DNA of 62,239 nt, filler included, from Jimgerdemannia flammicorona (taxonomy: Eukaryota), in NCBI GenBank assembly GCA_003990765.1. It is 3 parts of 3 records of this genome, joined end to end, with 100 filler letters (N's around TTAATTAATTAA, not from the genome) between each part and the next. Parts side by side here need not be neighbours in the genome. Positions count along the whole stretch, not along the records: positions 1 to 20,681 come from RBNJ01001614.1; 2 more parts are not named here. One strand, given 5' to 3'. Positions 1-59,750 of the stretch are shown here, in pieces; within the stretch, counting starts at the first letter, position 1; each line of letters opens with the position of its first letter. The notes below the pieces were generated by a model. It had not been told where the DNA came from, searched no databases, and saw nothing but the letters and a program-made list of their open reading frames with translations. Both the position numbers and the translations under genes were made by a program.

Positions 1-180
1 TCGAAATAAGTTCAAAGCAAAGAGATAGCAAAGGAACTAGTAAGCCTGCGGGCAGATACACTTCGAACTCACCCACCCTTCCCCTGCCACTTCAAGAGAC
101 TCTGCGAGAGTCAGAACAGTCAAGTTTTCAAGATACAGAAATCCGACGTACTTTCAAGAGTAAGCGTCCGCTACGTTACA
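1..180 (+). mobile_element. Probable 3' end of a young LTR inserted into older TE debris
   Basis: CpG-containing segment ends in ...CTACGTTACA (LTR-type CA terminus), then switches abruptly to CpG-free AT-rich sequence at 181. The other end is outside the window. Confidence 0.4.
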
Positions 181-3100
181 CTATATTATATATAGTATTT
201 ATAACTACTTATAGAAAATTCTATTAAAATTTCTATTAGAATTTCTATTGAGAATTCTAATAGCTTATTAATATATTTTATAAAAATTCTGTTAAAATTT
301 TTATTGAAATTTCCAATAGCTTTGTTAGAATATAATAATTGTTACATTCTTATCTTCTTTATTAGAACTTACTAATTAAGATTAGTACTAATTATAGATA
401 CTCTTTAAACTGAAGAACTGTATACTAGACTACTTAGAAGGTGATATCACTCTAGTATTCATTGGTCAGATTGATAATATTCTCTGAAAATATTCCATAA
501 AGGTGATCAAAGACTTGAAGCCAAGTACAGAAAAGGATATATAATTATTTTGTGATAATATAGATATAGTTATCAATAAATAGGTAGAATAGTTACTTGG
601 CTTTACGAGAGTTACTTGTTGGTAAATGAGTTATCTAATCTCATAATATTCCTTCAATTCTTATTAATAGTAAAAGACTTAGAAATGTTAGATTCTTCTA
701 AGATATTATTGGGCTTCATTTGGATCAAGATTTCTAAAAATTTGTATATTGATAAAGAATAGTTCTGTAGAGGTCTATTGGTATTTAATAGTTATAAAAA
801 TAGCTATAGTAATCTTATTCTTAATCTATTCTAGTATCATTACTAGTTATTTATATTATAGTAAATTATCTTATAAATATCTTAGGATATTTATACTTCT
901 CTTTATCAAGAGTATATCTATCTTTTGAAAATTCTATTATAATTTTCATTATATAAGATATTTGTATTGAGCTACTGCTTCTTTTATATTTAGTAAAAGA
1001 TTATCTTCTTTTTCCCAAGTAGTATCATATTTAGAATAGCCTTTCTATTTTATAAGATAGTATTAGATAAACTTGGTAGCTTATCCAAATTATCAGTCCT
1101 TGTAATTCAAAATATAATCAACTTTATATTCTAGTTTTTGATTAATGATAATTAGATCTAGAGATAGTATTATTCTTTCTTTAAAGGTATTTTCAGTATA
1201 TAGCTAGAGTTGAGATATATAAAACATTGAGTGGATTTTTTTTAGAGTTGCTAGAAGGTTCAACTTATATACAATAGAACTATACTTTTTTAAGATCTTA
1301 AATAGTCTAATATAGTAGAATCTGAGTTTCTTCTTTAATTTTGTATTATCTAGAGTTAAGTATTATATATTGAGTAATACTCATTCACCTTTTTCATAAG
1401 TAACTTCTCTTCTATTTTTTTTTTTAAAAAAAAGCAGAGTACTCTTCTCATTAAGTACTCTATCTTATCATGCCTCACCCTTCTTATCTGAAGAAGCCTA
1501 GACAGATACTTAGTAGGTCTCTCAACTTTCTCAAGTCTTTATCACTATAGCTAAGCTATTATATTCTATATACATGCCTTCTCCTCCTCTCTCAACACTC
1601 TCTTCAATCTCTTTACTTCCAGCTGGATCTATCTTAGGCTCTAATCTTTCACATCCTCCTACTCTAATATCTTTGCCTACTCTAACTATAATAACTCTAT
1701 CCTATAAGAGACCCATCTCTCTCACTATCTCTGCTGAGCTCTTTTAAACCTACTAGCTTTACTTCAATATATTTTGGCAGTCTTCTTCAACTTCACTCAA
1801 TAGATCCCTACTGGAGACCTCTCATATTTTCAGCAAACAATCTTCATCTCAATATTCTCTATCTAAGTATTCTACAACTCCTTCTTCTCTAATAAGGAGA
1901 AATTAAAATACTAATATTCAGATCTATCTCCACTCTCTCCAAACTGACTATACTCTAATAGTCTCTAATGATCAGATCATAGATACTACTCTATCTCTAA
2001 GTCATTCAAACATCTATCCCCCAGTAGTCACCAGTCAATATCTAGTCAATTTTTGTCCTAAGTCTATTCACTTAATGAGTATAAACTCTCTGATCACCCT
2101 ATACCATTCTGTCAGTATCTATTAATGAACTTAGAATACTTTATTTTCTCAGACTACTACTATAGCCCACTATATATCTTCCTCCATCAATTCTATTTAA
2201 TAGTATATTTTGCACTATATTAAAGTTCTCATTCAGTATATCTACACTAACTTCAGTAAGTATATCATACTCATAAAGTTTATCTAGCTACTCTACTCAG
2301 TTACTCTTAATTACTGAGCAATAACAAGAGCCTACTACTACTAGATCTTACCTAGTCTTTGCTATTTTCTCCAAACCAGGTGGTCTCTCTATCTTCCAAT
2401 CTTATATAATTCTCTCTTACCTCTCTGTATCAGAATTTCCACCTTATCTCTCTAAATCACTGTATTACCCCACTCTCTCATTTATATTAATTTATCTAAT
2501 TTCTCCTTATAATATTTATCTTATAGTAGAAAAAGATCTATCTTCAAACTCTATAGTCAAGTAAAAATGGTTTGATGCCTTACAGAGCTCCATAGACTAT
2601 TTATATTTAATAAGAAAATGCTAGTTATACTATTTATAAAAAAATATTATTATATTATAGTCCTATTCTCTTTATAGTTTTATACTTATCTTCTTCTGAG
2701 CCAAGTTTAGATTATATTCTGTAATTACTTCCTCCTCCTCAACCTTCTTAGCATCCAATCTAGCTAGTATCTCAGTAATCTCCTCATTATTCTTAGTCTT
2801 TATCTCTTCTATATACTTCTCACATACCATCTGTCAGAGCTACAATTTATATCTCTACTTTCATTAGAAAGCAGTATACTCTCTAGCAACTACTACTAAT
2901 TTAGCCTTTTTTACTATATCTACCTTATAATCTTTCTCTTTCAAAAATATAGTCAAAACCTCAGCCTTCAGCTTTTCCACTACTCTATTACTCTACAATA
3001 CCTCTCTCTCTTCTATTTTTGTTAGTATATATTACTTATATTCTTTATACTTCTATGAGGACATCATATGCTTGCTAGATAATATCTTATATAATATTAG

Positions 3101-5800
3101 CAACTTCTTATATCATTAATACTATTACCCATATGATAGTTGTGAGAGTTTAAAGATATTATCTATAGTTTAGATAGAATGAAATTATTTTTATACTTAT
3201 ACTTATACTATTATTATATATAAATTTAACTAGAGTTAAGTTTTCATTTCAATCATTCTACTTATAGCTATAGTAGATATTAAGTATCTGCTTCAGGATT
3301 TAATTAATTCATTCTATTTAGCTATCTCTATAGATGATAAACAGTAGATATCTTAAGTTATATTTCTAGACTTTTTAAAGAGTACTTATCAGAAGTTACT
3401 TATAAATTTCATATCTCTATCAGAGATAATTATTAATAGTAACCTATAGAGATAAGATATATTATTAATAAACAATTGTACTGTTTCTAAAGCTATTATA
3501 GTAGTAATAGTTATAATAAAATAAGTTTACTTACTGAGATAATTAATAAAGACAATAATCACATCTCTTATCTTCTTTATTTTTGACAGTTGGACAATAA
3601 AGTCTATTCTGATATAGTCTTAATTTTAGATGAAAATTAGTAGTAGCTATAGTATTCTAGCTAAAGCTTAGTTACTAAACTAATATCTTTAGTAAATATT
3701 ACAGAATACAATGTAGTTCTTGATGTTAGCTATTATCTTGAATCAGTAGAAATCTTAGGTAATATATTAATATATTTTGTCAAATCTCATATAACTAGCT
3801 ATGAGTATATCATGTAATTTTTATAGGATTCACAGATAAATAGAGATATTAGAAATATTCTTATATATCTTCTTTAGAATATTACTTTCTTCTTTGAGAA
3901 TTTGCTTAGCAATTTCTTATATATTAGTATTCTTGATATACTCTTTTTTTAACTTCTTTAAATAGGCTGATAGTAATATTACTAATTACTATAATATCAT
4001 TTTTCTGAGTACTGCATTAGCTACTTTATTCTTAGTATTTAATTTTAACATTAAAGAGTACAAGAATCTTATGTATTATATCTGTCTTTTAGTAAGAATT
4101 AGATATATCTGAATATATTATAGAGCTTAATAGTCTATTTATAAGATGAATTTCTTGCTAAAGAGGAAATATCTTCATAATTGTGAAGATCATATGATAG
4201 TAAGGAGTTTCTTATCTTATATATATAGTTCTTTCTATACTTATTTAGCTTCTGAGACAAGTATGTAACTAGATATTTATATTGAGTCAATATGGCTCTA
4301 ATAGTGATATTTAAGATATATATCTATAGTAATAGTAAAAAGTTCTATAGAGTCTGGGCTAATTAGGATTAGTGTATTGATCAGAGTATTTATTACTATA
4401 GTGTATTCTTCTATCTATTCTTTTTTAATATTGATTCTCTTTTTGTAAAGACTTATAAGTGAGGAGGCAATTACTGAGAATTCTTGAATATATCTTTAGT
4501 AGTATCCAGCTAATCTATTGAATCCACATTGAGACTTGAGGGTCTTTAGAATAGATCAGTTGCAGATTGCTTCAGTCTTTTTGAAATTAATAGTAATACT
4601 ATTTACTGAGATAATATATCCTAGATATTTGATTTTCTCTTAAAAAAGTAGCACTTCTTTCTTTTTGCTGAAAGCTTGTATTCTTAGAGTATATATATAT
4701 ATCAAAAATCATCTATAGATATATTAGTAAATAGTACTGCTTATACTATATATTAGAATATTATTGAAGTATGCTAGAATAAATACTCTAAGATATTTTT
4801 TAAATATGATATTTATCAGTATCTGGAAGATTACTGATATATTATTGAGTCTGAAAGATATTATACAGAATTTATAATATCTAAATCTTATTCAAAATAC
4901 TATCTTTAGAATATCTTCTTTCTTGGTAATATCTAAATATAAGATTGTTAAGTAAAAAGATCTTAGTATTATATACTTAATTAAGTTATTTATCAATTTG
5001 TAAAAGTATATATTAGTTCTTAATAGATATTTTATTGAGTACTTGGTAATCAATACATATGTAGAGACTATTATCTTTCTTGTAAATAAAGAGAATTAGT
5101 ATACTATATAGTAATTTTTAAGATATATAAGGCCTTTGTTTGACAGATCTGCTAGCTATTTCTTGAGAGTTTCTATCTTAGACTGAGCTAGTCAGTAGAT
5201 TCTACAGTAAGAGTATTTACTCCTAGAGTGATTTCAATATTATAGTTGATAGATAGTAGTCTTTGAGTAGTTTTTAAAGAGTTTCTTCATTATCATCTTT
5301 ATTCTTCAATAGTTCAGAAAGATCATTATCATCATTATCTTCTGTTAATAGCTATAATAAAACTATATACTGATAGAATTAATATATTGTAGATAATTAA
5401 GATAACTATTAGTTCTAAGTTCTGAGTTCTTATAAGAAAGTATTGAGTTCCAATTGTCTGTTGTAGTAGTAAGTATTACTTTTGAATTCTTATGCTGATA
5501 GCAGAGATACCATACTTATATCTCAAGTTAATTAGGCTTAAAATCATTAACAAGTCAGATCTGAGAGTTCTATGATAAGAATATTTCTTTATTTTTATAT
5601 TTAGGAAAAGTAGAGCTGAGGTTATAATATATATACTCAGTATAGAGAGTATTTATATAGATTTGAGACTTTGGCTAAATATAGTATACTGAATATATTT
5701 ATATATAATTATACTATATAGAATATTTATAACTAGTAGTTGTAAATTCTGTAGAAATTTCAGTAGCTTGTAGGTATATAATAATTTATTAGACTCTTCT
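181..5800 (-). mobile_element. Degenerate Ty3/Gypsy (chromovirus) retrotransposon, pol remnant RT-RH-IN-chromodomain, interrupted at 1420-3006
   Basis: Minus strand: RT motif decayed to FILAYFNNILIYS (YFNN at 4760-4771, from YFDD); KFCIISFRLNN (from MPFGL) near 4840-4875; integrase C-terminal IHSMFYISQL near 1205-1237; chromodomain YLIK*KGYSKYDTTWEKEDNL near 1000-1060. Many stops. Confidence 0.85.
1420..3006 (-). mobile_element. Non-LTR-type insertion with 14-bp target-site duplication inside the Gypsy integrase
   Basis: TCTCTTCTATTTTT at 1406-1419 and 3007-3020; T-run at the left end. The paralogous Gypsy copy near 6340-6365 is uninterrupted here. No coding identity could be read. Confidence 0.6.
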
Positions 5801-5819
5801 TTTTTTTATCTAAACCTAC

Positions 5820-8255
5820 TCATTAGATTTAGTACTAAACTTTAGATACTTATTAAACTGAAGACTAGTATACTAGACTACTTGAAAGATAATATTACTC
5901 TATTATTCATTACTCAAATTAATAATATTTTCAAGAGATACTCTATGGATTCCTAGATAGTATTATATATAGGATATCTTTTTTATTTTATAAGATAGTA
6001 CTAGATAGGCTTGGCAGCTCATCCAAATTAATAGTCCTTGTAATCTAAAATGAAATCAACTTCATATTCTAGTTCTTGATTAATAATAATCAGATCTAAA
6101 AATAGTACTATTCTTTCTTTAAAGATATTTTTAGTATATGACTAGAGTTGAGATATATGAAATACTGAGTGGAATTTTCTTAAAGTTACTAAGAGATCTA
6201 ACTTATATATAATAAAACCATATTTCTCTATAATCTTGAATAGTCTAATATAGTAGAGTCTGAGTTTCATTTTTGATCCTATATTATTTAAGATTAGATA
6301 TTATATATTGAGTAATATCTATTTATCTTTTTCATATGTAACTTCTCTTTTATTTTTATTAGTATATATACTACTTATATTCTTTATACTTCTATAAGAA
6401 TATTATATACTTACTAGATAGTATCTTATATAGTATCAGTGACTTTTTGTACTATTGGTACTATTACTCATATGATAGTTGTAAAGGTTCAGAGATATTA
6501 TCTATAGTTCAGATAGAATAGATTCATTTTTGTACTTATATTTACATATATTGTTATTATATATAAATTTAGCTAAGATCAGTTTTTTATTTTAATAATT
6601 CTACTTATAGTCATAGTAGATACTAGTGCTCTCAATGAATTGAATCAAATCAAATTTGGCCCAAACTCAATTTGATTCAATTGAATCAAGGGTCCAATTC
6701 GATTTGATTCAATTGAATCAAGGGTCCAATTCAATTTGATTCGAATCAAATCAAAGGTCCAATTTGATTCGAAGTTTGATTCAAACCTTAATTTTCAAAA
6801 TGTAATAACTCGACGAAAACTCATCCAAATTTAACATATTTTAGCTTGTTAGATTCACTGTATTAATGTGATTCTAACAAGCTAAAGTATATTAGATTTG
6901 GATGAGTTTACGCTGAGTTATTGCATTTTGAAAATTAGGGTTCGAATCAGACCCTCAATTCGATTTGACTTTTGATTCAATTCGAATTGATTTGAATTGA
7001 AAAATCCCCAATTCGATTCGACTCATTTAACCCTCAATTCGATTTGATTCGAATTGATTTGACTTGTTTGGAAGCACTAGTAGATACTAAGTATTTACTT
7101 CAGAGTTTGATTAGTTCATTCTGTTTGACTGTCTGTCTGTCTGTGAGATAAGTAGTAGTTATCATGAGTTATATCTTTAATTCTTTAAAAAGTATCTGCT
7201 AGAAGTTACTTGTGAATTTTATATTTCTATCAGAGATGATTGCTAATAATAATCTATAAAGGTAGAATATATTGTCAATAAATAATTATACTATTTCTGA
7301 CACTATTATAGTAGTGGTTATTATAATGAAATAAGTCTGCTTAATAAGATAATTGATAAAAACAATAATTATATTCTTTTTCTTCTTTATTTTTGATAGT
7401 TGAATAATAAAGTTCATTCTGATATAGTCTCAATTTTGGATAGAAATTGATAATATATAGCTATAGCATTTCTGCTAGAGCTTAGTTGTTAGATATATAT
7501 CTTTGACAAATATACAGAATACAATATAGTTCTTAATATCAGCTATCATCTTGGTCCAATAAAAATCTTAGACAATATATTACATATCTTATCAAATCTT
7601 ATATAACTGGCTATAGATATGTTATATAATTCTTATAAGATTTGTAAGCAGATAGTAGTATCAAAAACCCAAATTCTTGTATTATTAAGATACATATATT
7701 TATTTTAAATAGAAATATTCTTATATATCTTCTTCAAAATATTGCTTCTTTCTTTGAGAATTTGTTTAGTAATTTCTTATATATTGATATCCTTGGTATA
7801 CTTCTTTTGAACTTCTTCAAATAGACTAGTAGTGATATTACTAATTGCTATAAGATCATCCTTTTGAATACTTCAGAAAAGTATATATATTAGCTACTTT
7901 ATTTTTAGTATCAGCAATGTGCTTAATTTTAATATTGAAGAGTATAAGGATCTGTATCTATTATGCTTATCTTTCTATAAGAATTAGTTATATCTAAATA
8001 TATTACAGAGTTTGATAGTCTATCTATAAGATAAATTTCTTACTAAAGAAAAAGTATCTCTATAATTACAGAGATTAGATAATAGTAAGAAGTTTCTTAT
8101 CTTATATTATATAGTTTATTTTATACTCATTCAGCTTTTGGAACAGACATATAACTAGATATTCATACTGGATCAATATAGCTCTAATAGTAATATTTGA
8201 GATATCTATAGTGATGGTAAAGAGTCCTGTAGATCTGGGCTGATTAGGATTGATG
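5820..8255 (-). mobile_element. Second degenerate copy of the same Gypsy element (3' region, chromodomain, integrase, RNase H)
   Basis: 5835-5950 repeats 405-500; 5980-6620 repeats 1040-1420 plus 3020-3280; 7080-8255 repeats 3280-4370. Differences are mostly C/T and G/A. Confidence 0.85.
6624..7079. mobile_element. hAT-type MITE with 8-bp TSD, subterminal repeats and a central palindrome
   Basis: Termini TAGTGCT...AGCACTA; TSD GTAGATAC at 6616-6623 and 7080-7087; the empty site is a single GTAGATAT in the first Gypsy copy near 3272; repeated ATTCGATTTGATTC-type motifs; ~150-bp inverted repeat at 6790-6937. Confidence 0.85.

Positions 8256-9315: not shown

Positions 9316-9360
<45 letters not shown>
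9316..9360 (+). repeat. Poly(A) tract, possible retroposon tail
   Basis: About 45 consecutive A. Confidence 0.6.
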
Positions 9361-9365
<5 letters not shown>

Positions 9366-12300
9366 GCATTTAAGTACAGACCAAAAGTTCCTGTTTCCCC
9401 GTGCAATTGATTTCCTTGACTATCCCATGGATTCCCATCTTAACCCAGAAAATTGGTTAGAGTTCTACAAACGATTTAGTACTATCCCACAGTACAAAAT
9501 ACTCTCCCCCTACAATGGCTACTTGAATAACTGTTCGAATTTATATACTAGTTTATCATAGACCTCATGGAATTCATTTTGCCTTTCTATTGAATTATAT
9601 TTTAACACCCATATTCCTAAAATAAACAATAGCTTCACACAGAAGAATTAGAGCTCCCTCCAAACCTAAAAGATCTGCATCACTGTCTACCATATCTTCC
9701 ACAAATGACTAAAAATATTCCGTTAGAATATCAATGGCCGCAACATATATGACAAAACACCGCTGTCCATGAGCAAGTTTCATGAAACATTATCCACCCC
9801 ACACGGCCAAGTGACGTCTCTAATCCTCCACGTAACTTCTCGCCTGTCGAGCTGTCGAGCCTTAGGATAGTGAGGGGATCTAAAACGGCAAACAAAGAAC
9901 TATTGATATTCTATGCTGTTTGCGCTCTAACCATACGGAGATGAATATTGTGCAGTAAAAATGTTATGGGATTGCGATTTCGGAGTAAAGGAATCCCACC
10001 TTCGCCTAATCCCACCAATGCACCGTAGGCCATATGGATGGGATGTGTGCTGCCTGTTTTATTATCTCAATCTGACATCCACACGACCTTTTCAAGATAT
10101 GGAAGAAATGTTTCAAATTCATTTTTCTCAACACCCACTAAAAGGTAGTCGTCATGCTATAAGGTGTCTTGAGTTCTGCCAAATTGAGGTTCAAAAGTCG
10201 CTGCTTTTTTTTTTTTTTTTTTAGTCCCCTCTCATGGATTCTCGTGCTGATACGATTTTTTATTTGAATTCAGTCATTTTCTTGCAGAAGTATGTGAGTT
10301 TGTATCCTGGGCAAGAACGTTTAATTAGTTTGTTCAAAGGTAAGCGGTATCTATTTGTTATCAACATTCTAACGAAAGTGGCGTACTAGTATAAGATCTG
10401 ATTACAGTATATAAAATTCACTCTGTAGATAGCTCTCGAACCCCTCGATAAGCACTCGTTCATCCTGGCCGTCATTCTAATTATATCTGCCATTGCCTTT
10501 CACCATGTGCGGCCAGGGTTATCGGGGAATATTGAACGTGCTCCTATCCTGACCACGATTCTCGACTCTGGCATATGTTCCCTCCACGGCAAACACTACA
10601 TGCACTTTGAAATTTATTCTTGCCATCACGCAGAGTACATCGCACTTGCTAACTCATGCTCCGATAGATTTCGCTTACGTACAGCACGACAATTAGAGGT
10701 ACGATCACAGCGTCACCAACCTGTCATACCAATCTGACAACACTACCGTAAGAAGGAAGCCAACACGGAGTCTGAATCATCTGCTTTGATCCGTCTGGGG
10801 TTAGAATCTCGCATTCGAAATGGATGAAAAGGCAAACAAAAGAATGGTTGCACGAAGTCGGGAACTGTTGGATTGACTGATGCTTTGAACTTCGTAAATG
10901 GCATCAACGGTGGCAGATTAGAAACGCTTGTGGGATTGATGTTATCAATCATGGTGGGTAATAATGAAAAATGAGCATGGCGGTGTATGTGATTAGCATT
11001 CCTATGTAGTTGATTTTTTTTTTTTTGCCATGCTTCACATGACAGATTAAGGTCGAGGCTCCGTATTTCAAAATACCCAAGTTGCCTTTATTTCAGATTC
11101 TCTATGTGCGCAATTTTTGATGACAGACGTGCATCCTGGAAATTGCAGACGGGGAGCTTTGCACGCTCTGCGCCATAGGAGCCACGGTTTTTCAACACGC
11201 GACTGGGGTCGGCAATAAGCCGATGTTAGTTTCATGTTTTATTTATTTTATTTTTTAAAATGCGAAAAAATTATTGATGCATTCGATGTTTTCATTTGTG
11301 AATCCCACAACGCGAATCCCGCGAGCCATGACGCACATGAAGACGTTGTTCCAACAAAGATACAGAAGGATCCTAGTCTCTAACCTTTTTTTTTTTTTTC
11401 TAACGTCGTCTAGCAGATTCAATTGGTGCGGTGAGAGGGTGGCCTGCAGACGTGTTTTTTAGGTTAACGATGCGAAAATCGCAGTTCCTGCGTAAGGCTC
11501 TGCTCGGTGGAGGATTTTATTTTATTTGTCATATTTTATTTATTTATTTATTATCTATAAGTAATTACCTCTTGGTCAGTGCGCTAAACGATCATGATAC
11601 AACAACAGAAATATAAAAATATGTAGACATTGGCAAGGTAATGGTAATACACGAATTTGGAACAAGGTGTAACTGTTCGATATAAAGTAAGCTTCACAGG
11701 TTATGCGGTGCTGTGGATACCCGGATCCAGAGCTTTAGACTAGCGTAAATATGGGCCTGGATTCGTTTGTTCATAACATGTCCACGACATAATTGGTGCC
11801 GAGATAATAATTTGATGACACATATATACATATATAGTCATACCAAGAGAGAATCAGTTTAGGGACACATTATTTAATGCACGTCCTTGTCAATTGGCTA
11901 GGCAAACTGTCTTCCCGCGCCGTCCAACGCTCGCCGTGTGACTCCAATTCAATAGTATAAACCTCGTTTCATAATAAGCCATACCCCCGTTCTGAGTGTC
12001 AGAGATAGGATGCATATTGAGCCATAAACGCGCTCTCTCCAAAGTAAACTTCAATATAAGCGGCTAATCGTAAAGCCGCTCTCTCGAAATCAAACTCCCT
12101 TTTTCCCTCGATACTGACACACACTTTACTGCAATTTCAAGCAAGTATTGAATGTTATACGTGGATGGATAATGAAACGTACACCATCAAAACTTCATGG
12201 CTACGTGGTCTATCGTCCTGGATCCGATGCGACGACTTGCATTATTGTTTGACCCGGCTTGTGGATCACAACCCAATGTCGTTATTACGTGAACGAAATG

Positions 12301-12450
12301 TCTTACTTATCGAGTTTACTCTTCTAATGAATCACCCAACAAAAATTGATTATTCAATTCGAATTCCACAGCCGAACACCCTCATTGTAAACAGTAGTTT
12401 CCATGCGCTAAATAAAACCCCTCTCCACCTATTTCAATACAGCAGCATTA

Positions 12451-13104
12451 TTATATTTCATCCTCCCCTCTACGAGTCACTCGCCACCGCTTCACCTCGT
12501 CAAAAAGATACCTCGTCCCCGGTGCCTCGGCCGACTCCACCTTTTCGTACAACACCACATCCCACTCCGTCATCTCAGTTTCTTCCTTTTCCAGATTCAC
12601 TGTCTCTTGCGCTATCCGCTCCATCTCCTCCATCACCTCCGGAGCCAAGCTCCCCTCACCCTTCTCCGGGTAAAGGGCCAAACTTATATGGTTGATGTTC
12701 TTTTTACGCACGTGCGCCCCAACCTCGGAACCCGTCGCTGCTTCTACCAACGCATCCATCACCTCGTGGTACACCAGCGGAGCCTTTAACCCGACCAGCA
12801 GCTCCCCGGGAGCCTGTTTCCGACGTATGAAACCCGTTAACCGCGGTGGCGGAAACGGCAGACGCTTTTGGATCGCATCGTCGAGGGCCTGAACCATCGT
12901 TGCCGTGGTGCACGCCAGGGTTGGATCGGAGTTGCTGGGGGTAACGTCGAAGAAGCCGGTTATGGTGCAATGCGGATAGTAGCGTTGGGCTGAGTTGGGG
13001 CCGAAGCGGGAGAGAGTCATGGTAATGAAGGCATCGAGGCGGTTGAAAAAGGAGGAGGTTGGGGAGGGCTCAAGGTAGAGGATGAAGCGCCGAAGAGAGG
13101 ACAT
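12451..13104 (-). CDS. Stand-alone 2H phosphoesterase-superfamily protein (217 aa, intronless)
   Basis: Intact ORF with two HxT/S motifs, YPHCTITGFF and NHISLA, about 90 aa apart. Resembles the 2H domain of UBASH3/Sts proteins. Confidence 0.75.
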   Translation of the reverse strand: MSSLRRFILYLEPSPTSSFFNRLDAFITMTLSRFGPNSAQRYYPHCTITGFFDVTPSNSDPTLACTTATMVQALDDAIQKRLPFPPPRLTGFIRRKQAPGELLVGLKAPLVYHEVMDALVEAATGSEVGAHVRKKNINHISLALYPEKGEGSLAPEVMEEMERIAQETVNLEKEETEMTEWDVVLYEKVESAEAPGTRYLFDEVKRWRVTRRGEDEI

Positions 13105-14924
13105 GCTGACTAGGGAAGGAGGTTCAGAAAGTGTTTAGGAGAGCTATACTTAAGTAATCACGTTCCGTTTAAAGTGTCCTGACACAATCGGAGAAGAGGC
13201 GTGCGTGGCTTAGCGGTTGAGAAAGAAATTATAAAACATCCCATTACCGTCGGCTTTAGCGTTTCTCATATTAAGCATTCGGTAACAATTTCACATCTTA
13301 GGCTGGCTGAATTTCTCACTACTTCTGTGACCTCAAACCCTTCCGTTGGACGGAGACCGCATGTATGTACTTGCAAAACTTGCGCTTTAACCAAAATCCA
13401 GGCCAATATAACATCCTGTGGGATGGCTTTTTCCCATTGACACCATACTTTGGACCACGCCGTCTTGTTTGTGTCAGATGTTCCATCTGGTCGACCAATA
13501 ATGAACTAACGTATGACTTTGACTAGCTGGTCTGCTAATTACATACCACAATTTCAGTCATCGGAAATTCGTTCGGGTCTCCAGGTGTTTATGGCCACAT
13601 CGAGTACACTGAAGCCTCCGAATTTGGCAGGTAATTGCCGGCGTTCCCTCTCCGTGGACATGCAGGGTTGGTACGAGAGGACGGGTTTTGTGAAGATCTC
13701 CCTCCCGGTAGGCTGCTGGAGCCCTGACCAAGCGAAGCGACCTTCCATAAATGATCTTTTAGATCTGTTGATCGAGTGTAAAAACGATCTCCGGAGCAGT
13801 CGAAATGCGGGCCTGTATCATGGAGAGACGAGAGCATTGGGGATACTAGTCAGGAGACAGCTTTTCATTTGCCGTCTGCAAAAGCTTAGCCACCTCCAGT
13901 AAATTCTACGAATTTGAGCACCTGAAGAGAATGGCACACAGATGGGAGGATGAGATCAACGAAGAGGCAGAGACCGAGTCCAACGACGTGAAGATCCCAT
14001 GTTATTTCTGATGATTCGGAAGAGGGAATAAAAATAATGAAAAAGGAGTAGAGGGGCGAGCGTTTAGGGCAGCAACGTGTAAATTCCATGTTGTCGCCAA
14101 GAATTGAAAGCACATTTAAAATAGTCAACAGGTGGTGAGAGTAATCTAATTAGCAGTAATATTTAATCACAATGCAACGGGTGTACATTATGCCTGACCC
14201 TTGTTGCAAGAGCACATCATCTACGTCATGTTTCACCATTGCATGAAATTAAATCACACCTGTATATAATTACTTACATCATGTGGCATCTAGTCGTATG
14301 AACGTGTGGGCCCATGGCTATCACTACTCCTTGCCTTATTCTTCGCAAACACCAAAGTGTCGTGTCAGCCGAGGTGCCGAGGTGTATATACATCTTATAC
14401 ATCCCGAGAAACCGGCGCCAACAGACGCAACCGATGCCAATAGCTGCAACATACGCCAATACGCCAACAGATGAAACCAACGCAATAGGTGTAACCGAAG
14501 ACGTCATCAATTTTTTTTTTTTGCTCACTTATATACCGCCCTCTGCGTTCGCCTATCTCTCGAAAGTTCAAGACCCCAGTAACTTACATATCCATGTACT
14601 CCAGTAACATGTCATGTGTTGTTATTTACACGCGTAAATACCGCTCCCATATCTCAGCAATGGCTAACCGACTCGGTCGACAAGCGTTGGGATATGGTTT
14701 CTTACGGATAGTAAGTTAAAATCTAGGCGGGTTTACTCGTGGTATGAGGCTTGACAAGTGGATTTTTTCTTATTTTAAGAGTTAAGTTTTGACAGTTAAG
14801 TAAAGTTTTTATTTCTGGTAAAGTCTTCGATTTCTGTTTGTTTTCAACTCGTATTCTTATTCAGAACGCATATACTGACTTAACTATGACTGGCGCGTAG
14901 CGCGTGGCGCGAGTGGCCACGCCC

Positions 14925-14985
14925 GCCGGTCTTGGTTGCTTCGTATAGCCAACTGATGAGCCCCTTGAGCAAGGGCGAAACCGGT
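14925..14985 (+). ncRNA. Type III hammerhead ribozyme
   Basis: GCCGGU-C (cleavage after 14931); stem I UUGGUUG/UAGCCAA with a 7-nt loop; CUGAUGA at 14953-14959; stem II GCCCCUU-GAGC-AAGGGC; GAAA at 14977-14980; ACCGGU closes stem III. Confidence 0.9.
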
Positions 14986-16227
14986 CTACTCCATAGCCTT
15001 TTATCTGTAATAACATAGCTATAGATGTTACCAAATAAATAAAATAATAAAAACAACACCAAAAAAGTGAAAAGGGAGACACGTCTCGAGATTGTTTACG
15101 TCGCGTTTATAAGCGCTTACGAAATGACTGTCACCCTGAACGCGAAGGGATATCACGCGACTCGTCAGCATGACCGTTCACGGTCCTAATCTCAAACCCG
15201 CCACACCCATGCCGCTGCATACACACACGCCCACACGGCATCTCAACCACGGACACAGGCCTGAATGCGCAACCAGCTTGGCTCCGATTTGATTTCGTAC
15301 CCGCCCATCCTTCTTACAGACATGTTCCTCGCTCACCGTCAAACCCGCAGACCGGCCCTATGCAGGGATCAATATACGCCATGACCGCGGGCAGTACTTG
15401 GCGACCAAGAAGCGCGTGCTGTGCTACGAGTTCGAGCGGAGCTCCAGGCAAGACCACCATATCATTTTGGCATGGTGACGAAAATGGCTACAAGTTCGCG
15501 ACAACTACAATGTCTCACTCGTTCCTAACATATATGCATGTCTTCGGCTTCAACGGCAAACGTCATCTCTCGCGAACTACTCATTTTCCGGAACCCAATG
15601 GTCAGCAAGAACCCCGAAGAAGGCGTTCGAGGAGCGGGCGAGAGTGCTGCGGGCGCTTGTGGAGGAGAAAAAGGCGGCATGTTGAAAGGTGGTGCGATAG
15701 CGATGGGGGACATGTAGGCAATCGATGGGTAACATGCAGGAAGTCGCTGGGGGACATGCGGTACGTGCGGAACATGGTGGTGCCGCTAGACGGAGTTGTA
15801 CGCGTCTGACGGGGAGGTACATCAAAGTGGAGCGTTCGGCCAGGTGGGCGAAGAGGTTGGGGTTTGGGGTTTGGGGGTTGCCGAGATATGGAGTGGCATG
15901 CATAAGTAGGGAAGTGGTTTTTATACTGATATACGTAGTAATGGACAACACAATAATATTGGCGAGAATTCAGTTGCGACGAATCAAAAATAATACAGCG
16001 AATAACCCAATAATTACAATAGTCAAACGTTTGAGTTTAGTGATCTTAATTCGCCGGTATAATAAAAGGAGCCCTTTCTCTCGCCTCGCATCCTACAAGA
16101 ACCTAAACACGGAATCGGTCCCCTCTCGCCTTGAACTTCGCATACGACCTACATAGTCCCCACAGCACGATCGATCCCACGACCTAAACTACAAGGTACA
16201 GTAACCCCAAGGTCGACTCTCCCGTCG

Positions 16228-17987
16228 TTAACCACGCCAGATCACATTCGCGGCCCCAGCATACAGATACATATGTAGGATATAGTGGACCGTGCGTAAT
16301 CGAGCAAGGACCCTCCGTGACAAATTTGTAAAAGCAATTTGCGGACCCCGTTGGGATGACGTAGAACGCTGTGAAGAGAAGGTGGTTGACAGCAAGGTAG
16401 AGGGCTGGGTAGGCGATGTCCGGAACGTACTTGACGGCGTTGAAGAAAGTCTGGGGAGAGGCGAGGTAGGGATTATTGAAAGGCGTGCTTGGGAGAGCTG
16501 GCTGGAGGAGGAAGAGGGAGAGGAGGATGGAGAGGTGCTGATGGTGTTGGTGTGGTGGTTAATGCGTGGAAAATGGATAGGCCAGTTAACCAGGCGATTC
16601 ATACTGAAATATCGAGGTCAAAACACACTATCTCTGGCCCTATTGTTACGCTTGTTCTTGATCATGACGTACCCGAACGCGACGCCGTACAGCGTGACCC
16701 CAATCTAGTTCAAGGGCGGATATGTGGAGTAGAAGAAGCCCGATACCTACGATATGGGGACGCATACAAGTCAGACATCGGGTCACACCACATAAAAACA
16801 CAGGCACAGGCAAGCACCCCCTTAATCACTCCTCCTCCCCCTCCCCCCCTCCAAAAAAAAAAAAAAAAAAAAAAACCCCACCAGGCAAATACAGCAAATA
16901 CCATCACAACCCGTACCTCTCCACGATTCCATTCTCAACCGGTTCCGGCAGGAGCACGACATTATTCACACAGAACGTGACCACAAGGACTAAAAATCCG
17001 AAAATGCGGATGCGAGCGGCGCGCGCCTCGGCCTCGACGATCCACGGAACACCGGTTTTATTGTGCGTGGTCAACGAGTGGACTGTGCGGGTATAGAGGT
17101 GGTTGGCCAGGAGAGAGGCGAGGGCGCCGAAAAGGAAGTTGATGCCTAGGACGAAGAGGACTATCGTGACGAAGTGGTGAGGAAAGAATAATTGTTAAGG
17201 AGTATGCCTTCGGCATGACCTGGAATTTGCGTGGGTCCAGGCGCTGTTTCTTTGTTCTTTTCGCGGTCTCCCGGACCCACAGCCGCACGAAAACATCAGA
17301 ATTCAAAACTCACACCAAATCACAATCGACTTTAACCACATATCTGGTTTCATGAGATGATTGGCCACGACCAGCAACGCGCCCTGACGAAGAATTGTCG
17401 CACGAGCCGGCCATCCGTCCATCCGAGCCCCTTACGCGAGCGGACAAAATGCACGATGCATATGCCAATCAGGAGGGCGAGGGCGAATCCTGAGTGTGGG
17501 AGTGTGAGAGATTCGAATTTTTGGGTATGTGATTGAGGCGTGTGAAGGAGGACGTACTGGGAGCGCAGGAATGTGTGACGAAGCGGAGGAGGAATAGAAC
17601 AATGGCCTGAGCTCGTGCCAAGTCTCGTGGGGACCGTACTGGGGAGGGGGGCGGTGTCAATTAAAATGGGGTACGGGGAAAGGCTTGGTGTAGCTCGGAG
17701 ACTATGAATGAAATTAAACGTATATACCCACTTGTCAAGGCGCGTCTTGGAATTTGATGAATACAGGACGATAAAGGTCAAGGTTCAACGCAGGGGGTGA
17801 GTGGGATGTTTTTGAATGGCAGGACTGGCGAAGATGGGGTGGTTACTTGGGTGCAGAAGAGTACTTCAAACGCTGTCGTTTGGTCGGTTGCGCCGCGGTG
17901 AATGTGGCGCAGTGGTGACATCACCATCATTTCTGACAAACAGTCGCAGCATTGTGCTTTCCGTGCTTGTGGCTCCAGCAGTTCCAC
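16228..17987 (-). pseudogene. Disrupted DUF1624/HGSNAT-like multi-pass membrane protein gene
   Basis: Fragments in order across frames and introns: LDLYR..FQ, LRFVTHSCAP, GFALALLIGICIVHFVRSRKGLGW, YPPLN*IGVTLYGVAFG (TAG at 16705-16707), FFNAVKYVPDIAY, HMYLY. Frameshifts present; boundaries approximate. Confidence 0.6.
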
Positions 17988-18327
17988 TCTATGTGTACGT
18001 TTGCAATGCTTAGTTTTGCAATGACCATTTTATAATTTTAAATGCTAATTATATAAAAGTCAAAATATCCCCTCATTCTTGGCGGGACCACCAACCTGTT
18101 CGCGGACAAAATTACCAATGTCCTGGGATGCTTGGGTATTGCCGTCGACCAGGAGCGACTCGAGCATCTGATCCCGGCTCTGACAGACAAAAAATCCATT
18201 GTGTGCTGGATTTGAATTTTACCGCGATCACGGATTGTTGAAATTGACATCTCGATAATGTGGCTTATAACTACGTCATCTTTGAGATACGCACTATCTG
18301 GAATAATAAACAATGCTCCCTCTTCAA

Positions 18328-18594
18328 GGTCCTTTCTCTGCTACCATACCAGTCACAAGGTTTTGGTAGACAACCTTCCAAGTCCCCTTTTCCCTACTTT
18401 TAGCCTCTCTACCTTAGGTTGGTTTGTTGTATCTGTAAGAATATAGTAGGAGAGAGGTAATAGTGATAAGTTGTCTCTTTATTGGTATCAGATCAGTGTT
18501 TTCTCTACTTTTTTGTAGTTTCTGATGTCTCTAGCTATATCTGAGGTGTATTCATTTTGGTGTAGTGTTTATTCCTTTTGCTATCATCAATAAG

Positions 18595-18636
<42 letters not shown>

Positions 18637-18638
18637 AG

Positions 18639-18670
<32 letters not shown>

Positions 18671-19667
18671 CACTTAGACTCATCCTTTATTACACCCATC
18701 TAATCTATATAAATACATTAAACCCAATCCCCCTAGGGGGGCCCCTCCCCCCTACCCCTTCTTGACAAAACACTACTCTATCAAATACAATTCCCACCCT
18801 TCCACCACTCTATTCATCAATAAGATATTATCATAGAGTATTATAGACTATATAGAGAGTTAGTCAGGTTTAAGTATTAAGTATTAGTATAGGGTCTCAG
18901 TATCTGTAGTGGGGTCCTCTGGGCTTTGGTGAGCTTCTTGGCAAGTACAGTACTGGTAGAGGTAACTATTTTTTCAGATAGAATTAAGATAGGAGAGGAG
19001 ATGACTATTATAGATAGATAGAAGAGTAATTATAATAGATTAGTTAAATACTAGGCTAGTGATAATTATTAAGACTGAAGTGGATACTGCATCAGTGAGG
19101 CCTTCTGATTGATAAGATAGTAGGTATCACTCTTTGCTACTTTTAGCAATATATGAGATTAGGCCCTAGTTATTAGAAATAGTCAGAGAGCCCAAGGCTA
19201 TCTAGATCAAATGTCTTGGCTATACTTAACTAAAATTAGAAGCTGATATAGCAATATAATCAAGGTCTGCAGACTTGAGTAATAGGGTATTAGAGATCTC
19301 TTTTTACATATCTTATATATAAGTTCTCTACTTATCTCATTAGGAAGAACTAGGTTCTATCTACTATTCTATACTTTGATAGAGATTTTTCTTTATCTAT
19401 CACTTCATTTGGAGTAGTGGAGACTATTTTATTTAGCTCAGACATGGTCTTATATATATATATATTAGAGTGTTGAATATATACTTTTAGTATTAGTATA
19501 TAATCACTTTCTCTCTAGTAGTAGAGAGAGCATAATATATAGAATAAGATATAGGCTAATATAAGCCCTGCTATATCTAATATAGTCAAGCTGCTAGATA
19601 ATACTTAATTTAGATTTAATAGAAGTATAGTACTCAGAGAGTAGTAGGAGAGATTTTTGATCTATAT
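18328..19667 (+). mobile_element. Poly(A) retroposon family copy 1 (most decayed), truncated by hAT insertion at 19668
   Basis: Colinear with 32917-34050 from the same 5' end (GGTCCTTTCTCTGCTAC) to TTTTGATCTATAT. Confidence 0.8.
18600..18813 (-). mobile_element. Short 5'-truncated poly(A) retroposon insertion
   Basis: ~65-nt poly(T) at the left end; 16-bp TSD TCATCAATAAG(G/A)TATT at 18584-18599 and 18814-18829; absent from the paralogous copies. Confidence 0.8.
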
Positions 19668-20106
19668 TAGTACTCTAAATAAGTTAATTTAATCTGGATT
19701 AGATTTGGATTGAATTCAGATTGAATCTCATCTAGATTAACTTGGATAGAAAATAGGCTAATCCAGATCAATTTAAATTGATCATTGTTTTGATTTCCAA
19801 ATTAGACAATTAAATATTTATATCAATAACTTAATAAATAATTATCCAATTTTGATAATTCTGATGTTATTTGAAAGTCCTTAATAAGTCCTTTCTAATG
19901 ATACCAAGACTATTAAAATCAGATTATATATTGCTGAGCTATTAAGAAAAATATTCTTTTGAAGAAATTTCCAAAATTGGTAAGTTGGATATTTTTCTTG
20001 ATAACTCAGCAATGTATAATCCAATTTTAATATTCTTGGTATCATTAGAAAAGTCTTATTAAGGGCTTTTAAATAACACCAAGATTATTAAAATTTAATG
20101 ATTATT
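19668..20106. mobile_element. hAT-like MITE left part with a long palindrome, interrupted by an LTR
   Basis: TAGTACTCTAAATAAGTTAATTTAATC resembles the TIR of the 6624-7079 MITE; inverted arms of ~118 bp at 19838-19956 and 19988-20106. Confidence 0.6.
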
Positions 20107-20326
20107 TGTAACAATTTCACAGTCATATTTAGTCTTAGTATATTTTTGCATCTTTTAGTTAGTCTTTTCTTGTTATTTCTTAAACATTCTACTATGTTCT
20201 GCTATCTTTTACTTGCTTAGAAACCTTCTCTTGATATCCAGATACTACTAAAACATTTTTGTCTTTCCTTGACACCAAGTATCTTATCTTAGCTAGTTAT
20301 AGAACCTTTTAAAACATTATAGAATA
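20107..20326 (+). mobile_element. Partial LTR of the dUTPase chromovirus family (same as 35046 and 40654)
   Basis: Starts TGTAACAATTTCACAGTCATATTTAGTC and aligns with the first 220 nt of the 464-bp LTR. Confidence 0.9.
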
Positions 20327-20681
20327 GTGTTTGCTGTGCCTGCATGGGCATGGTGGGAGAAGGACAATGGTGATGAGTTGCCCCTTTATCGGTGTCAGAT
20401 CGGTGTCTTCTTCACTTTTTCGCGGTTTCTGGTGTCTTCGGCTGCGTCTGGAGTGCATCCGTTTTGGTGCGGCACCTTCTTCCTTTTGCCGTCGTCAACA
20501 AGGTGCTGTCTCGGTGTGTCTCGGGCTACGTAGGGAGTCGGCCGACCTTGGGCGTCAAGTGCTCAGTGTAGGTTACCTGCAGGTCCTCGGTGCCTGTGGT
20601 GGGGCCCTCTGGCTTTGGCGAGCTTCCCGGCGAGCGCGGTTCTGGCGTAGGTGACTGCTTTTCGGGTGATGTCGGGATGGG
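20327..20681 (+). mobile_element. Poly(A) retroposon family copy 2 (young, CpG intact, 5'-truncated, runs into the gap)
   Basis: Aligns to ~33015-33368 and ~18422-18990 but retains CpGs. Confidence 0.85.
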
Positions 20682-20781
20682 NNNNNNNNNNNNNNNNNNN
20701 NNNNNNNNNNNNNNNNNNNNNNNNNTTAATTAATTAANNNNNNNNNNNNNNNNNNNNNNNNNNNNNNNNNNNNNNNNNNNN
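20682..20781. other. Artificial contig spacer
   Basis: 100 nt of N with a central TTAATTAATTAA. Confidence 0.95.
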
Positions 20782-32759: not shown

Positions 32760-34480
<1,721 letters not shown>

Positions 34481-35045
34481 AAAGAAGTATATCTCCTCTA
34501 GGTTAACTACTTTAAGAAGAATATCTCTCAATAAGTATACTACCAATCAGTCAAGCTATATAAGAACCTCATTATAGAACTAAGAGAGCAGACTATCTTC
34601 AAAATTTTTGTATTACTCAATTCTAGAAATCTCTTCTTTAAATTCAATGAGGACATCAAGAACCTGGATATAGAAGGATATATATTTTCTGATAAAATGA
34701 ACTCTATATACTCTCAAGCAATTAACCAAAGCTGAGAAAGTCTCATTCTGTTAAAAAAAAACTATCATAGGTCATCTGGTACTCTATCTCAACTAGAGAT
34801 ATAGAGAATTTTATGAACTAAACCTATTGGGAAATAGTAGAAGATCTCAGAAGAAAGAAAAGATCTTTCTGTAATCCAAGAGAAAGTAAAGCCTTTTACC
34901 AATATTAGAGAAGAATTGATACCTTAGCAATAGTACCAACTAGGAGAACTTCTTTATAAATATCAAAATATCTTTATTATAGACTATATAATCTATTATA
35001 TAACTAATTATATTACTATAGTATAAATATAGAAAATATAATACC

Positions 35046-35509
35046 TGTAACAATTTCACAGTCATATTTAGTCTTAGTATATTTTCACATCTTTTAGTTA
35101 GTCTTTTCTTATCATTTCTTGAATATTCTACTATGTTCTGCCACCTTCTACTTACTTAGAAATCTTCTCTTGGTGCCCAGACACTACTAGAACATTCTTG
35201 TCTCTCCTTGGTACCAAGTATCTTATCTTAGCTAGTCATGAAATCTTTTAGAACATTGTAGAATAGTATTAGTCAGCTTTGTGGGGAATCTATTTTTTGG
35301 CATTTCTCTTTCTTTCCAAAATCCTTCAAGATCTTTCTTTCAGATTATATATAAATATCCTTATTCTCTATCTAAATAAAGTTCAGAATATTTTCTCTCA
35401 GAAATCCTTCAAGAACACTTGAACCTTTAAGTATCTCTTTGAACTACTTTAGGCCAACTAGAACTTCCAGATTTAGCTGCTTCCTCTTAAAGAAACTAGA
35501 ACCATTATA
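35046..35509 (+). repeat. 5' LTR
   Basis: Direct repeat of 40654-41117 with the same length. Confidence 0.95.
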
Positions 35510-39900: not shown

Positions 39901-40653
39901 GCTTACACTGTTAGAGATCAAGTCCTACTGTCTACTGAGAATCTCAAGATATAATCTCAAGTCAACTACTCTTCAAACAAGTTTTAACCCAAATATATTG
40001 GACCTTTCAAGATCACTGAACAAGTCTCTGCATTCTTCTACTGCCTCAAGCTACCTGAAACTATAAGAGTACACCCAGTCTTTCATATGTCATACCTCAA
40101 GACCTAGAACCAGTCATATCCTACTCTGGTCAAATTCCTAAGCCTTCTGCTCTTGTGATTATTGAAGATCATATTGAGTATAAAGCTGAGAAAATTCTTG
40201 ACAAATAAATCTGCTACTACTATCCTGAATACCTAGTCAAGTAGATGGATTACTCTAAATATGATACTACCTGGGAACCACTGGTCAACCTCAAGAACTC
40301 TCAAGATCTAGTTCAAGACTTTAAGATAAAATATATTGTCCAATCCCTATAGTGACTTCATTGGATTGTTGATGATCTATAGTAATGACTAGTGTCTTAT
40401 GCATCAGAAGTTTACTTTGGGACCCCAGAACCAGCAGAACATTTAATAAATAAGAAGTCCACTGAAATGAAGCTACTAGCTGGATTTAAACCCCTCTCAG
40501 TTAGTTAGTCTAGTAATAGGCCCTCTGTCTTATATAAGGATAGCTAATCTTCACCAATATACTGATATAAGTTTGAGAAATTTTGGTTAAATATATCTAG
40601 TCTTGTGTTACCTAAGAACTCAACAAGGATGTTAGTTCTTAAAGAGAAAGAGA

Positions 40654-41117
40654 TGTAATAATTTTACAGCCATATTTAGTCTTAGTATATTTTCACATTT
40701 TTTAATTAGTCTTTTCTTATCATTTCTTGAATATTCTACTATGTTCTGCTATCTTCTACTTGCTTAGAAACCTTCTCTCAGTACTCAGATACTACTAGAA
40801 TATTCTTATTCCTCCTTAGTATTAAGTATCTTGTCTTAGCTAGTTATGAAACCTTTCAGAACATTGTAGAATAGTATTAGTCAGCTTTGCCAAGAATCTA
40901 TTTCTTGGCATTTCTCTTTCTTTCTAAGATCCTTCTGAATCTTTCTTTCAGATCATATATAAATATCCTTATTCTCTGCCTAAATAAAGCTCAGAATATT
41001 TTCTCCCAGAAATCCTTTGAGAATACTTGAACCCTTAAGTATCTCTTTGAGCTACTTTAGACTAACTAGAACTTCCAGATTTAGCTGCTTTCTCTTAAAG
41101 AAACTAGAACTATTATA
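40654..41117 (+). repeat. 3' LTR
   Basis: Direct repeat of 35046-35509, preceded by the PPT. Confidence 0.95.
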
Positions 41118-47901: not shown

Positions 47902-48071
47902 TTTCGGTGGTAAGCAACAAGGCGAGAAACGCGAAGTCAGTCACATAAGGTAATTAAATGAATAAAATGACGTCACATGCTTGGTCTCCCTCTTCAACTT
48001 CCCTTCCTCACCTCCTCACCTCCTCACCTCACCTCCTCACCTCCTCACCTGAACCCCTTGGACCTCAAGCC

Positions 48072-59400: not shown

Positions 59401-59750
59401 TAGTGCTCTGCAAATCTGATCTAATTAACTCAAAACCCAACCTATAAAACAACTAACCTGGAATTACATATATAATCTGTCTTTAACCCAATCTAGAAAT
59501 ATATATCACTCATCTTTAACCTAACTCATATATATCACCTATCTTTAATCTAACCCAGAATTAAATATCACCCATCTTTAATCTGACCTGGAAATATATA
59601 TCACTTGTCTTTAACCCAACTTGAAATTATATATAATCTATCTTTAACCTAATCTAAGAAATATATATAATCTGACTTAAGAAATATATGTGACCTAACT
59701 CTGATCTGATCCTGATCTTATATAGATCTGTCTTTAATCTACCTTTAAGC
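59401..59750. mobile_element. hAT-like terminus with ~40-bp degenerate subterminal tandem repeats
   Basis: Starts TAGTGCTCTG (compare TAGTGCTCTC at 6624); repeats of TATATCACCCATCTTTAACCCAACCTGGAA type. Confidence 0.5.

Follow-up and report, generated by a model that had tools for sequence, protein, structure and literature searches.

The plant LTR retrozymes are the closest described precedent for a type III hammerhead ribozyme that is encoded in DNA and lies in a non-coding setting. According to their primary description (Cervera, Urbina & de la Pena, 2016; PMC4918200), these elements carry the ribozyme in a pair of direct repeats (300-400 bp) that enclose a non-coding core of 300-600 bp, show a 4-bp target-site duplication, and have a tRNA-Met primer site and a polypurine tract beside the LTRs. 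They use the machinery of Ty3/Gypsy elements, leave numerous solitary LTRs behind, and are present as many dispersed genomic copies with abundant unit-length circular RNA (PMC4918200). The hammerheads of metazoan non-LTR retrozymes and of Penelope-like elements are of type I or minimal, and are found either as tandem units of 150-400 bp or within the terminal repeats of Penelope elements that have an RT/GIY-YIG ORF (PMC7229834; PMC4209133). In fungi, hammerheads encoded in repeats of Yarrowia lipolytica were reported as the first cases (Perreault et al., 2011; PMC3088659), and type III hammerheads are carried by fungal ambiviruses, circular mitoviruses, and viroid-like RNAs. The latter agents are replicons that exist only as RNA and that usually combine ribozymes in both polarities with strongly paired genomes (PMC13725137; PMC11721086; PMC13343976). 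Type III hammerheads in fungi have so far been discussed within such replicons, and retrozymes have been described for plants and animals. In the open literature, supplements aside, we found no report that Mucoromycota carry a family of type III hammerheads in their chromosomes; no description of fungal retrozymes was found there either, judged by titles and the beginnings of abstracts, nor any mention of fungi in three reviews of hammerheads or retrozymes.

Here, we analysed a type III hammerhead motif encoded in the genome of Jimgerdemannia flammicorona, an early-diverging mycorrhizal fungus of the Endogonales (Mucoromycota). The window, by which we mean the whole stretch of DNA analysed (62,239 nucleotides including filler, joined from three parts of assembly GCA_003990765.1), contains the motif on its plus strand, and the coordinates of all parts are collected in Table 1. 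The initial annotation had read the segment 14925..14985 as a complete type III hammerhead in an intergenic region, with stems I and II closed by loops and stem III open, and this reading was borne out. Three helices surround the core in the arrangement that defines type III, all core nucleotides are in place, and the 15 pairs proposed for the stems are standard throughout. When folded alone, the segment (63-70 nt) adopts a three-way junction as its minimum-energy structure. The isolated motif is not more stable than its shuffles (z 0.09 and -0.51), and no excess stability over shuffles is usual for RNA so short. The ribozyme is located within a stretch lacking recognisable coding sequence, and no plus-strand gene model includes it.

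Table 1. Parts of the hammerhead motif and its flanking features (positions in the window).
Feature	Position	Strand	Evidence and details
GC-rich hairpin competing with the active fold	14888..14931	+	-26.3 kcal/mol, z -2.31
Type III hammerhead ribozyme	14924..14986	+	RF00008 38.5 bits, full-length; R1 79.3 bits; 15/15 stem pairs
Stem III 5' strand and cleavage triplet GUC	14925..14931	+	Sequence; pairs with 14980-14985; open stem of 6 bp (14925-14930 with 14980-14985), outermost pair G-U; GUC at 14929-14931, scissile C17 = C14931
Stem I, 5 bp (UUGGU/GCCAA) and 11-nt loop	14932..14952	+	Sequence, pairing check; 14932-14936 with 14948-14952
Conserved core CUGAUGA	14953..14959	+	Sequence, Rfam alignment, pattern search
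Stem II: 4 bp, bulged C, 2 bp, GAGC loop	14960..14976	+	Sequence; 14960-14963 with 14973-14976, then bulged C, two U-A pairs, GAGC loop; starts with conserved G10.1-C11.1 closing pair at 14960/14976
Core GAAA and stem III 3' strand	14977..14985	+	GAAA 14977-14980; stem III 3' strand 14980-14985
A-rich tract	15034..15067	+	Sequence; begins 48 nt past the motif; membership in an element uncertain

The Rfam family Hammerhead_3 (RF00008) aligns with the motif over model positions 1-54 of 54, with E = 6.9e-7 when 501 bases were searched and 8.6e-5 when the whole window was compared with 4227 Rfam families. In this check, which had been proposed for the motif, the match runs end to end, and its 38.5 bits fall below the gathering score of 48.5, which is why a default Rfam scan is blank at this position. 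As seen in the printed alignment, the shortfall is mostly due to an 8-nt insertion in loop 1. Scores under the gathering value were likewise obtained for all 11 of the Hammerhead_3 matches in eight metagenomic loci described below (29.3-45 bits). The bare core pattern matches once in the window (shuffle mean 0.08, with at least one match in 8 of 100 shuffles), and the hammerhead is the sole ribozyme family match of Rfam on either strand. From its sequence, we consider it very probable that 14924-14986 is a genuine hammerhead ribozyme; as such, it is an unexceptional representative of a class of ribozymes that is found very widely.

The locus resembles plant LTR retrozymes in several respects: its type III hammerhead is encoded in DNA and lies amid non-coding sequence, the copy is solitary, as is common among the plant elements, its host is rich in Ty3/Gypsy elements, and several ribozyme variants are present in RNA. 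Unlike the plant elements (PMC4918200), it resides in a fungus; neither a pair of 300-400 bp LTRs nor a tRNA-Met primer site was found at the locus, and candidate 4-bp duplications did not exceed chance there. With the metazoan retrozymes and Penelope-like elements, it would share the organisation as a ribozyme-bearing repeat family with RNA expression (PMC7229834; PMC4209133); it differs from them in that the motif is of type III, has no tandem array, and is accompanied by no RT/GIY-YIG domain in the 71 ORFs (at least 45 aa) of the interval 13.1-18.6 kb, none of which contains a Pfam domain above the cut-off or a reverse transcriptase. A suggested association with Penelope or DIRS elements finds no support in these observations, given that the motif is type III rather than type I and no such ORF is present. 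Similar to the Yarrowia lipolytica hammerheads (PMC3088659), the ribozyme is encoded in fungal DNA and tied to multi-copy sequence, and it is distinguished from them by a host in the Mucoromycota instead of an ascomycete yeast. The type III form and the fungal host are also features of the ambiviruses, circular mitoviruses, and viroid-like RNAs introduced above, whereas the window's hammerhead is located in chromosomal DNA, in one polarity, and between weakly structured flanks: the folds of 14600-15100 and 14357-15054 are modestly more stable than those of shuffles (z -2.46 and -2.12).

A second hammerhead was found on neither strand of the 62-kb window, be it with the core pattern, with Rfam, or with the family covariance model R1, which was run without filters and gave 10.8 bits (E 0.59) for the best match after the motif itself. 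The flanks (13200-15300) are repeated nowhere in the window, and neither an LTR partner nor a tandem array was found for the hammerhead there. Ends of the type TG..CA with duplications of 4-6 bp yielded nine candidates around the motif, compared with a mean of 6.8 in shuffles, and 77 of 300 shuffles reached nine; with these candidates at chance level, we dropped the reading of the locus as a solitary LTR delimited by such ends. Matches to a tRNA-Met primer-site motif, with up to two mismatches allowed, number four in the window, which corresponds to chance level, and the nearest of them is at 18335, 3.4 kb away. A 9-nt direct repeat (14348-14356 and 15055-15063) frames the 698-nt segment 14357-15054 and is equalled in 565 of 1000 shuffles. 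This segment, with its A-rich tail and flanking repeat, was also considered as a SINE, a reading that we rejected with the repeat at chance and with no tRNA-like part; no tRNA gene was found near the motif. The annotation had placed the motif in the terminal repeat of an element spanning roughly 14640-15067. This span finds no support, with boundary signals at chance, and LTR-like, tandem, or target-site arrangements within the window were either not found or at chance. A single copy without element boundaries had been named beforehand as the observation that would contradict a retrozyme terminal repeat, and a single copy without boundaries is what the window contains. The A-rich tract that had been taken as the tail of the element is present, but starts closer to the motif than the approximately 60 nt given for it (Table 1). 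Taken by itself, the window's copy is solitary and boundary-less, and possibly a solitary LTR.

Hammerheads cleave by attack of the 2'-OH of the scissile nucleotide on the next phosphate, which produces a 2',3'-cyclic phosphate and a 5'-OH. By analogy, in a plus-strand transcript across the motif the three-way junction would form, and the 2'-OH of C14931 would attack the phosphate that follows, with the predicted cut between C14931 and U14932. The cut would leave the 2',3'-cyclic phosphate at the end of the upstream fragment and a 5'-OH on U14932, the first nucleotide of the downstream one. A cut after C14931 had been forecast from the start, and the position of the GUC triplet agrees with the layout of the class. 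Similarly, the GC-rich self-complementary stretch that had been noticed in front of the motif was confirmed as the hairpin 14888-14931, and only 3 of 200 shuffles fold into a structure as stable. Its outer stem takes up the 5' strand of stem III and the cleavage site. In a context of 106 nt, the minimum-energy fold contains this hairpin and lacks stem III, and the best fold that is constrained to the active hammerhead lies 6.1 kcal/mol above the minimum, which translates into an active share of about 4e-6 at predicted equilibrium. The hairpin is thus predicted to sequester the cleavage site and to out-compete the active fold of this copy, and since it is made first in transcription, it should restrain the copy unless opened. 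Given that energy models ignore the tertiary contacts of hammerheads, as well as co-transcriptional or multimeric folding, the blocking by the hairpin is a prediction only.

Evidence for further copies comes from assembled contigs (Logan) of four sequencing runs, which were compared with positions 12000-18000 and each of which contained only a small share, less than half, of the words of a 1.2-kb query. Contigs of one run, here X2, have no differences to the neighbouring genes over pieces of 773 nt and 435 nt and therefore stem from the same species, and those of a further run, X1, differ at a few sites. In X1 and X2 alike, a contig joins position 17160 to 17314 and omits the 153 nt between them, which on the minus strand are bounded by GT..AG and thus form one canonical minus-strand intron at 17161-17313, and we take this as evidence that both runs are RNA, a nature that is only guessed in the run record. 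At the ribozyme, the contigs of these runs agree with the window only over 14947-14983, the 3' two-thirds of the motif. Upstream of 14947 they diverge into at least eight contexts in X1 and at least seven in X2, and downstream of 14983 four contigs of X1 diverge as well. The consensus of the upstream-diverging contigs retains the cleavage triplet and the 5' strand of stem I, and in other contigs the alignment extends across loop 1, with one base or another missing at 14941-14946; stem I and its loop are the variable part in the other copies of the species as represented in these contigs.

Logan contigs are pieces of a graph that overlap at shared words, and the pattern is therefore the one expected of a single core residing in several sequences. 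On the strength of these contig sequences, the ribozyme motif is likely to be multi-copy in the RNA material of this species. The additional contexts need not be genomic, as the contigs are short graph pieces and the material may also include other organisms or free RNA replicons. With regard to the earlier proposal that the motif belongs to a repeated element, the recurrence of the core in several run-contig contexts speaks for it, if indirectly, and the locus itself offers no terminal-repeat feature of a retrozyme. The summed word depth in the bin of the ribozyme (2168 and 2521) is a total over many contigs and should not be equated with expression, and parts of 13.2-14.6 kb as well as 15.0-15.2 kb have little or no cover by run contigs.

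Relatives outside the species were sought in viral contigs and metagenomes with a pattern that fixed the core and the ends of stem I, which returned 18 loci (one viral and 17 metagenomic) with 23 motif instances. Fifteen of the 17 metagenomic loci were set aside, being other hammerheads that share only the imposed search pattern. The viral match, on a 23-kb contig, has a different stem II, and neither the exact nor degenerate patterns of stem II had any match in the viral contigs. The closest sequences found are the soil contigs L002 and L014, which have the stem I ends and the stem II hairpin of the window's motif and are 83.6% identical to it over 55 nt (BLAST, E 2e-9). In stem II, they are separated from the window by a compensatory double change (C-G to U-A) under which pairing is maintained. 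Their sequences are also different in loop 1 and in stem III, which still pairs. Both contigs are AT-rich (35-37% GC), contain internal tandem repeats and no long ORFs, and show no similarity to the window beyond the ribozyme. This stem II variant had no matches in 185,579 prokaryote genomes and none in the viral contigs. In an alignment of ten hammerheads, hand-picked from the 18 loci, 91.3% of the cells pair and changes on both sides are present in 6 of the 15 pairs, and none of 500 shuffles reached its covariation score. Only stems II and III are informative in this respect, because the search pattern fixes the core and the ends of stem I.

Some of the loci recovered by this search are noteworthy in their own right. 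One of them (L010, 1-1189) had been considered a relative of the host family, as its stem I loop resembles host variants, and proved to be an unrelated, strongly paired circular element: an exact terminal redundancy of 123 nt indicates a circular or tandem unit of 1066 nt with one type III hammerhead. Its circular fold has -447 kcal/mol, compared with -318 +/- 9.6 for shuffles (z about -13), with 73% of the bases paired, and stop-free runs of 359 and 222 aa are found on opposite strands. In these features, the element resembles an Obelisk-like or viroid-like coding circular RNA. Two ribozymes share a strand of a 1032-nt contig (L005, 343-400 and 886-956), namely a type III hammerhead and a twister of type P1 that scores below gathering (54.7 bits). 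Three related contigs (L011 2501-3947, L012 43-1487, and L018 8-1450) have hammerheads every 490-540 nt on one strand, and L011 contains further hammerhead-like matches on the other strand.

The reading that we favour, and to which we give an even chance, sees in the window's copy a solitary representative of a family of hammerhead repeats that is transcribed and retrozyme-like. The hammerhead at 14924-14986 would be one copy of a family whose core sits in several contexts in the RNA of the species. This family would most likely be a non-autonomous, retrozyme-like repeat, in which the ribozyme trims transcripts to unit length, and its setting would be a repeat-rich genome dominated by Ty3/Gypsy elements. 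A review describes Jimgerdemannia genomes as obtained from field-collected fruiting bodies, about 240 Mb in size, and composed of more than 77% repeats, with Ty3/Gypsy elements dominant in these fungi (PMC10386755). The window's copy itself would be a solitary, boundary-less insertion whose own cutting is held back by the upstream hairpin. What the data show directly is the motif with its fit to the class, the compensatory changes relative to its relatives, the several contexts in run contigs, and the fungal host; that the RNA cleaves itself, that the family is a retroelement, and that circular RNA may exist is what we infer from them. A wider formulation, namely that Endogonales carry a transcribed, DNA-encoded type III hammerhead family that represents fungal retrozymes, with unit-length or circular RNAs and mobilisation by Ty3/Gypsy elements, is tentative, and we regard it as rather doubtful at this point.

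Other explanations account for parts of these observations. The ribozyme might belong to the RNA-processing repertoire of the host, with paralogues in ordinary transcripts (UTRs or non-coding RNAs of a gene family), where it would set the end or the stability of the RNA independently of any mobile element. We consider this unlikely. The motif is intact and non-repetitive at the locus, the adjoining region at 15.2-17.9 kb is a paralogue-rich transcribed family with relatives elsewhere, the hairpin over the cleavage site could serve as a switch, and gene-linked hammerheads are known in other lineages (PMC3088659); yet no plus-strand gene model includes the motif, the intron at 17161-17313 and the CPDase-like gene described below are both on the minus strand, and the sequences on either side of the shared core vary, a pattern more in keeping with dispersed repeats than with a single conserved gene position. 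A fragment of an endogenised RNA replicon is a further candidate: the contexts in the runs would represent viroid-like or ambivirus-like circular RNAs, and the window would hold a reverse-transcribed fossil of one of them. Type III is the form present in fungal ambiviruses, circular mitoviruses, and viroid-like RNAs (PMC13725137), the sequenced material of such fungi was collected in the field (PMC10386755), and the many variants of one ribozyme in the run contigs could reflect a replicon swarm. The locus, however, has a single ribozyme in a single polarity, its fold z-scores (-2.1 to -2.5) contrast with the value of about -13 for the true circular element L010, Pfam revealed no replicase-like ORF, although it may miss such proteins, and the viral contigs contained no matches. 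This origin appears quite improbable, and the related suggestion that the window contains an integrated viroid-like RNA finds no support either, given its one ribozyme, one polarity, and modest fold z-scores.

The least eventful explanation would be a dead relic or a chance look-alike without activity, locked by the upstream hairpin and with no plus-strand transcription. The RF00008 score below gathering, the active-fold share of about 4e-6 predicted for the 106-nt context, and a stability no higher than that of shuffles would all be in line with such a relic. Against it stand the window-wide E value of 8.6e-5 with every core base intact, the presence of the same core in the run contigs of the species, and the double change relative to L002 and L014 that leaves stem II paired, and the energy models behind the low active share leave out tertiary contacts as well as co-transcriptional or multimeric folding. 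We judge a relic or look-alike to be very unlikely.

According to one review, single-ribozyme circular RNAs from RNA surveys might be unrecognised retrozymes (PMC11721086). This idea finds a concrete test case in an early-diverging mycorrhizal fungus that has a type III hammerhead in its chromosomal DNA and the same core in several RNA contexts, and the case also bears on the view that viroid-like RNAs originated by escape from cellular genomes. The observations hint at a ribozyme-bearing repeat family in fungi. If true, a fungal retrozyme family would add fungi to the plants and animals for which retrozymes are described, and a cellular source would be at hand for some of the circular RNAs with one ribozyme that appear as 'viroid-like' in soil and fungal surveys. 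Should the window's copy be a lone relic, it would only add one example to a ribozyme already found very widely.

The surroundings of the motif contain additional features. A gene resembling 2H phosphoesterases, or 2',3'-cyclic-nucleotide phosphodiesterases (CPDase), is located at 12451-13134 on the minus strand, opposite to the ribozyme and 1.8 kb from it. Its ORF is 99% identical to a protein of Jimgerdemannia flammicorona and 48% identical to one of an Endogone species, which assigns the DNA to an Endogonales host and led us to reject an initial reading as an ascomycete with RIP-mutated repeats. The CPDase-like call derives from Protein Atlas leads and the source name of a relative, with no Pfam match. 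While hammerhead cleavage leaves a 2',3'-cyclic phosphate, the position of such a gene beside the ribozyme is probably a coincidence. On the other side, 15200-17900 is a transcribed region with many partial run-contig matches at 85-95% identity, which suggests that the region has paralogues. The exon ORF at 16187-16558 (minus strand) has nine relatives (E 3.7e-11 to 3.9e-5), eight of them without a Pfam domain; the family comprises proteins of roughly 160-460 aa, and none with 'longer' lengths was found in the homologue search.

Farther away, a long hairpin at 6727-6999 has arms of 132 nt that are 81% complementary and 9 nt apart. It matches a plant microRNA precursor family of Rfam below threshold (54 versus 83 bits), and is probably a foldback or MITE-like repeat within an AT-rich block. 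Such blocks (23-32% GC) extend over 1-8100, 18000-20700, 33000-35400, and 40650-40950, and contain dispersed repeats that are 72-88% identical to one another. Homopolymer tracts of A or T, from 45 to more than 100 nt in length, are found at 9316-9360, 18598-18670, and 34090-34215. The window also includes two eukaryotic genes, Sec39/Nbas at 47958-53079 and Rpp40 at 57109-57684, as well as a short tandem array at 59468-59685, which consists of about five copies with a period of 33 nt.
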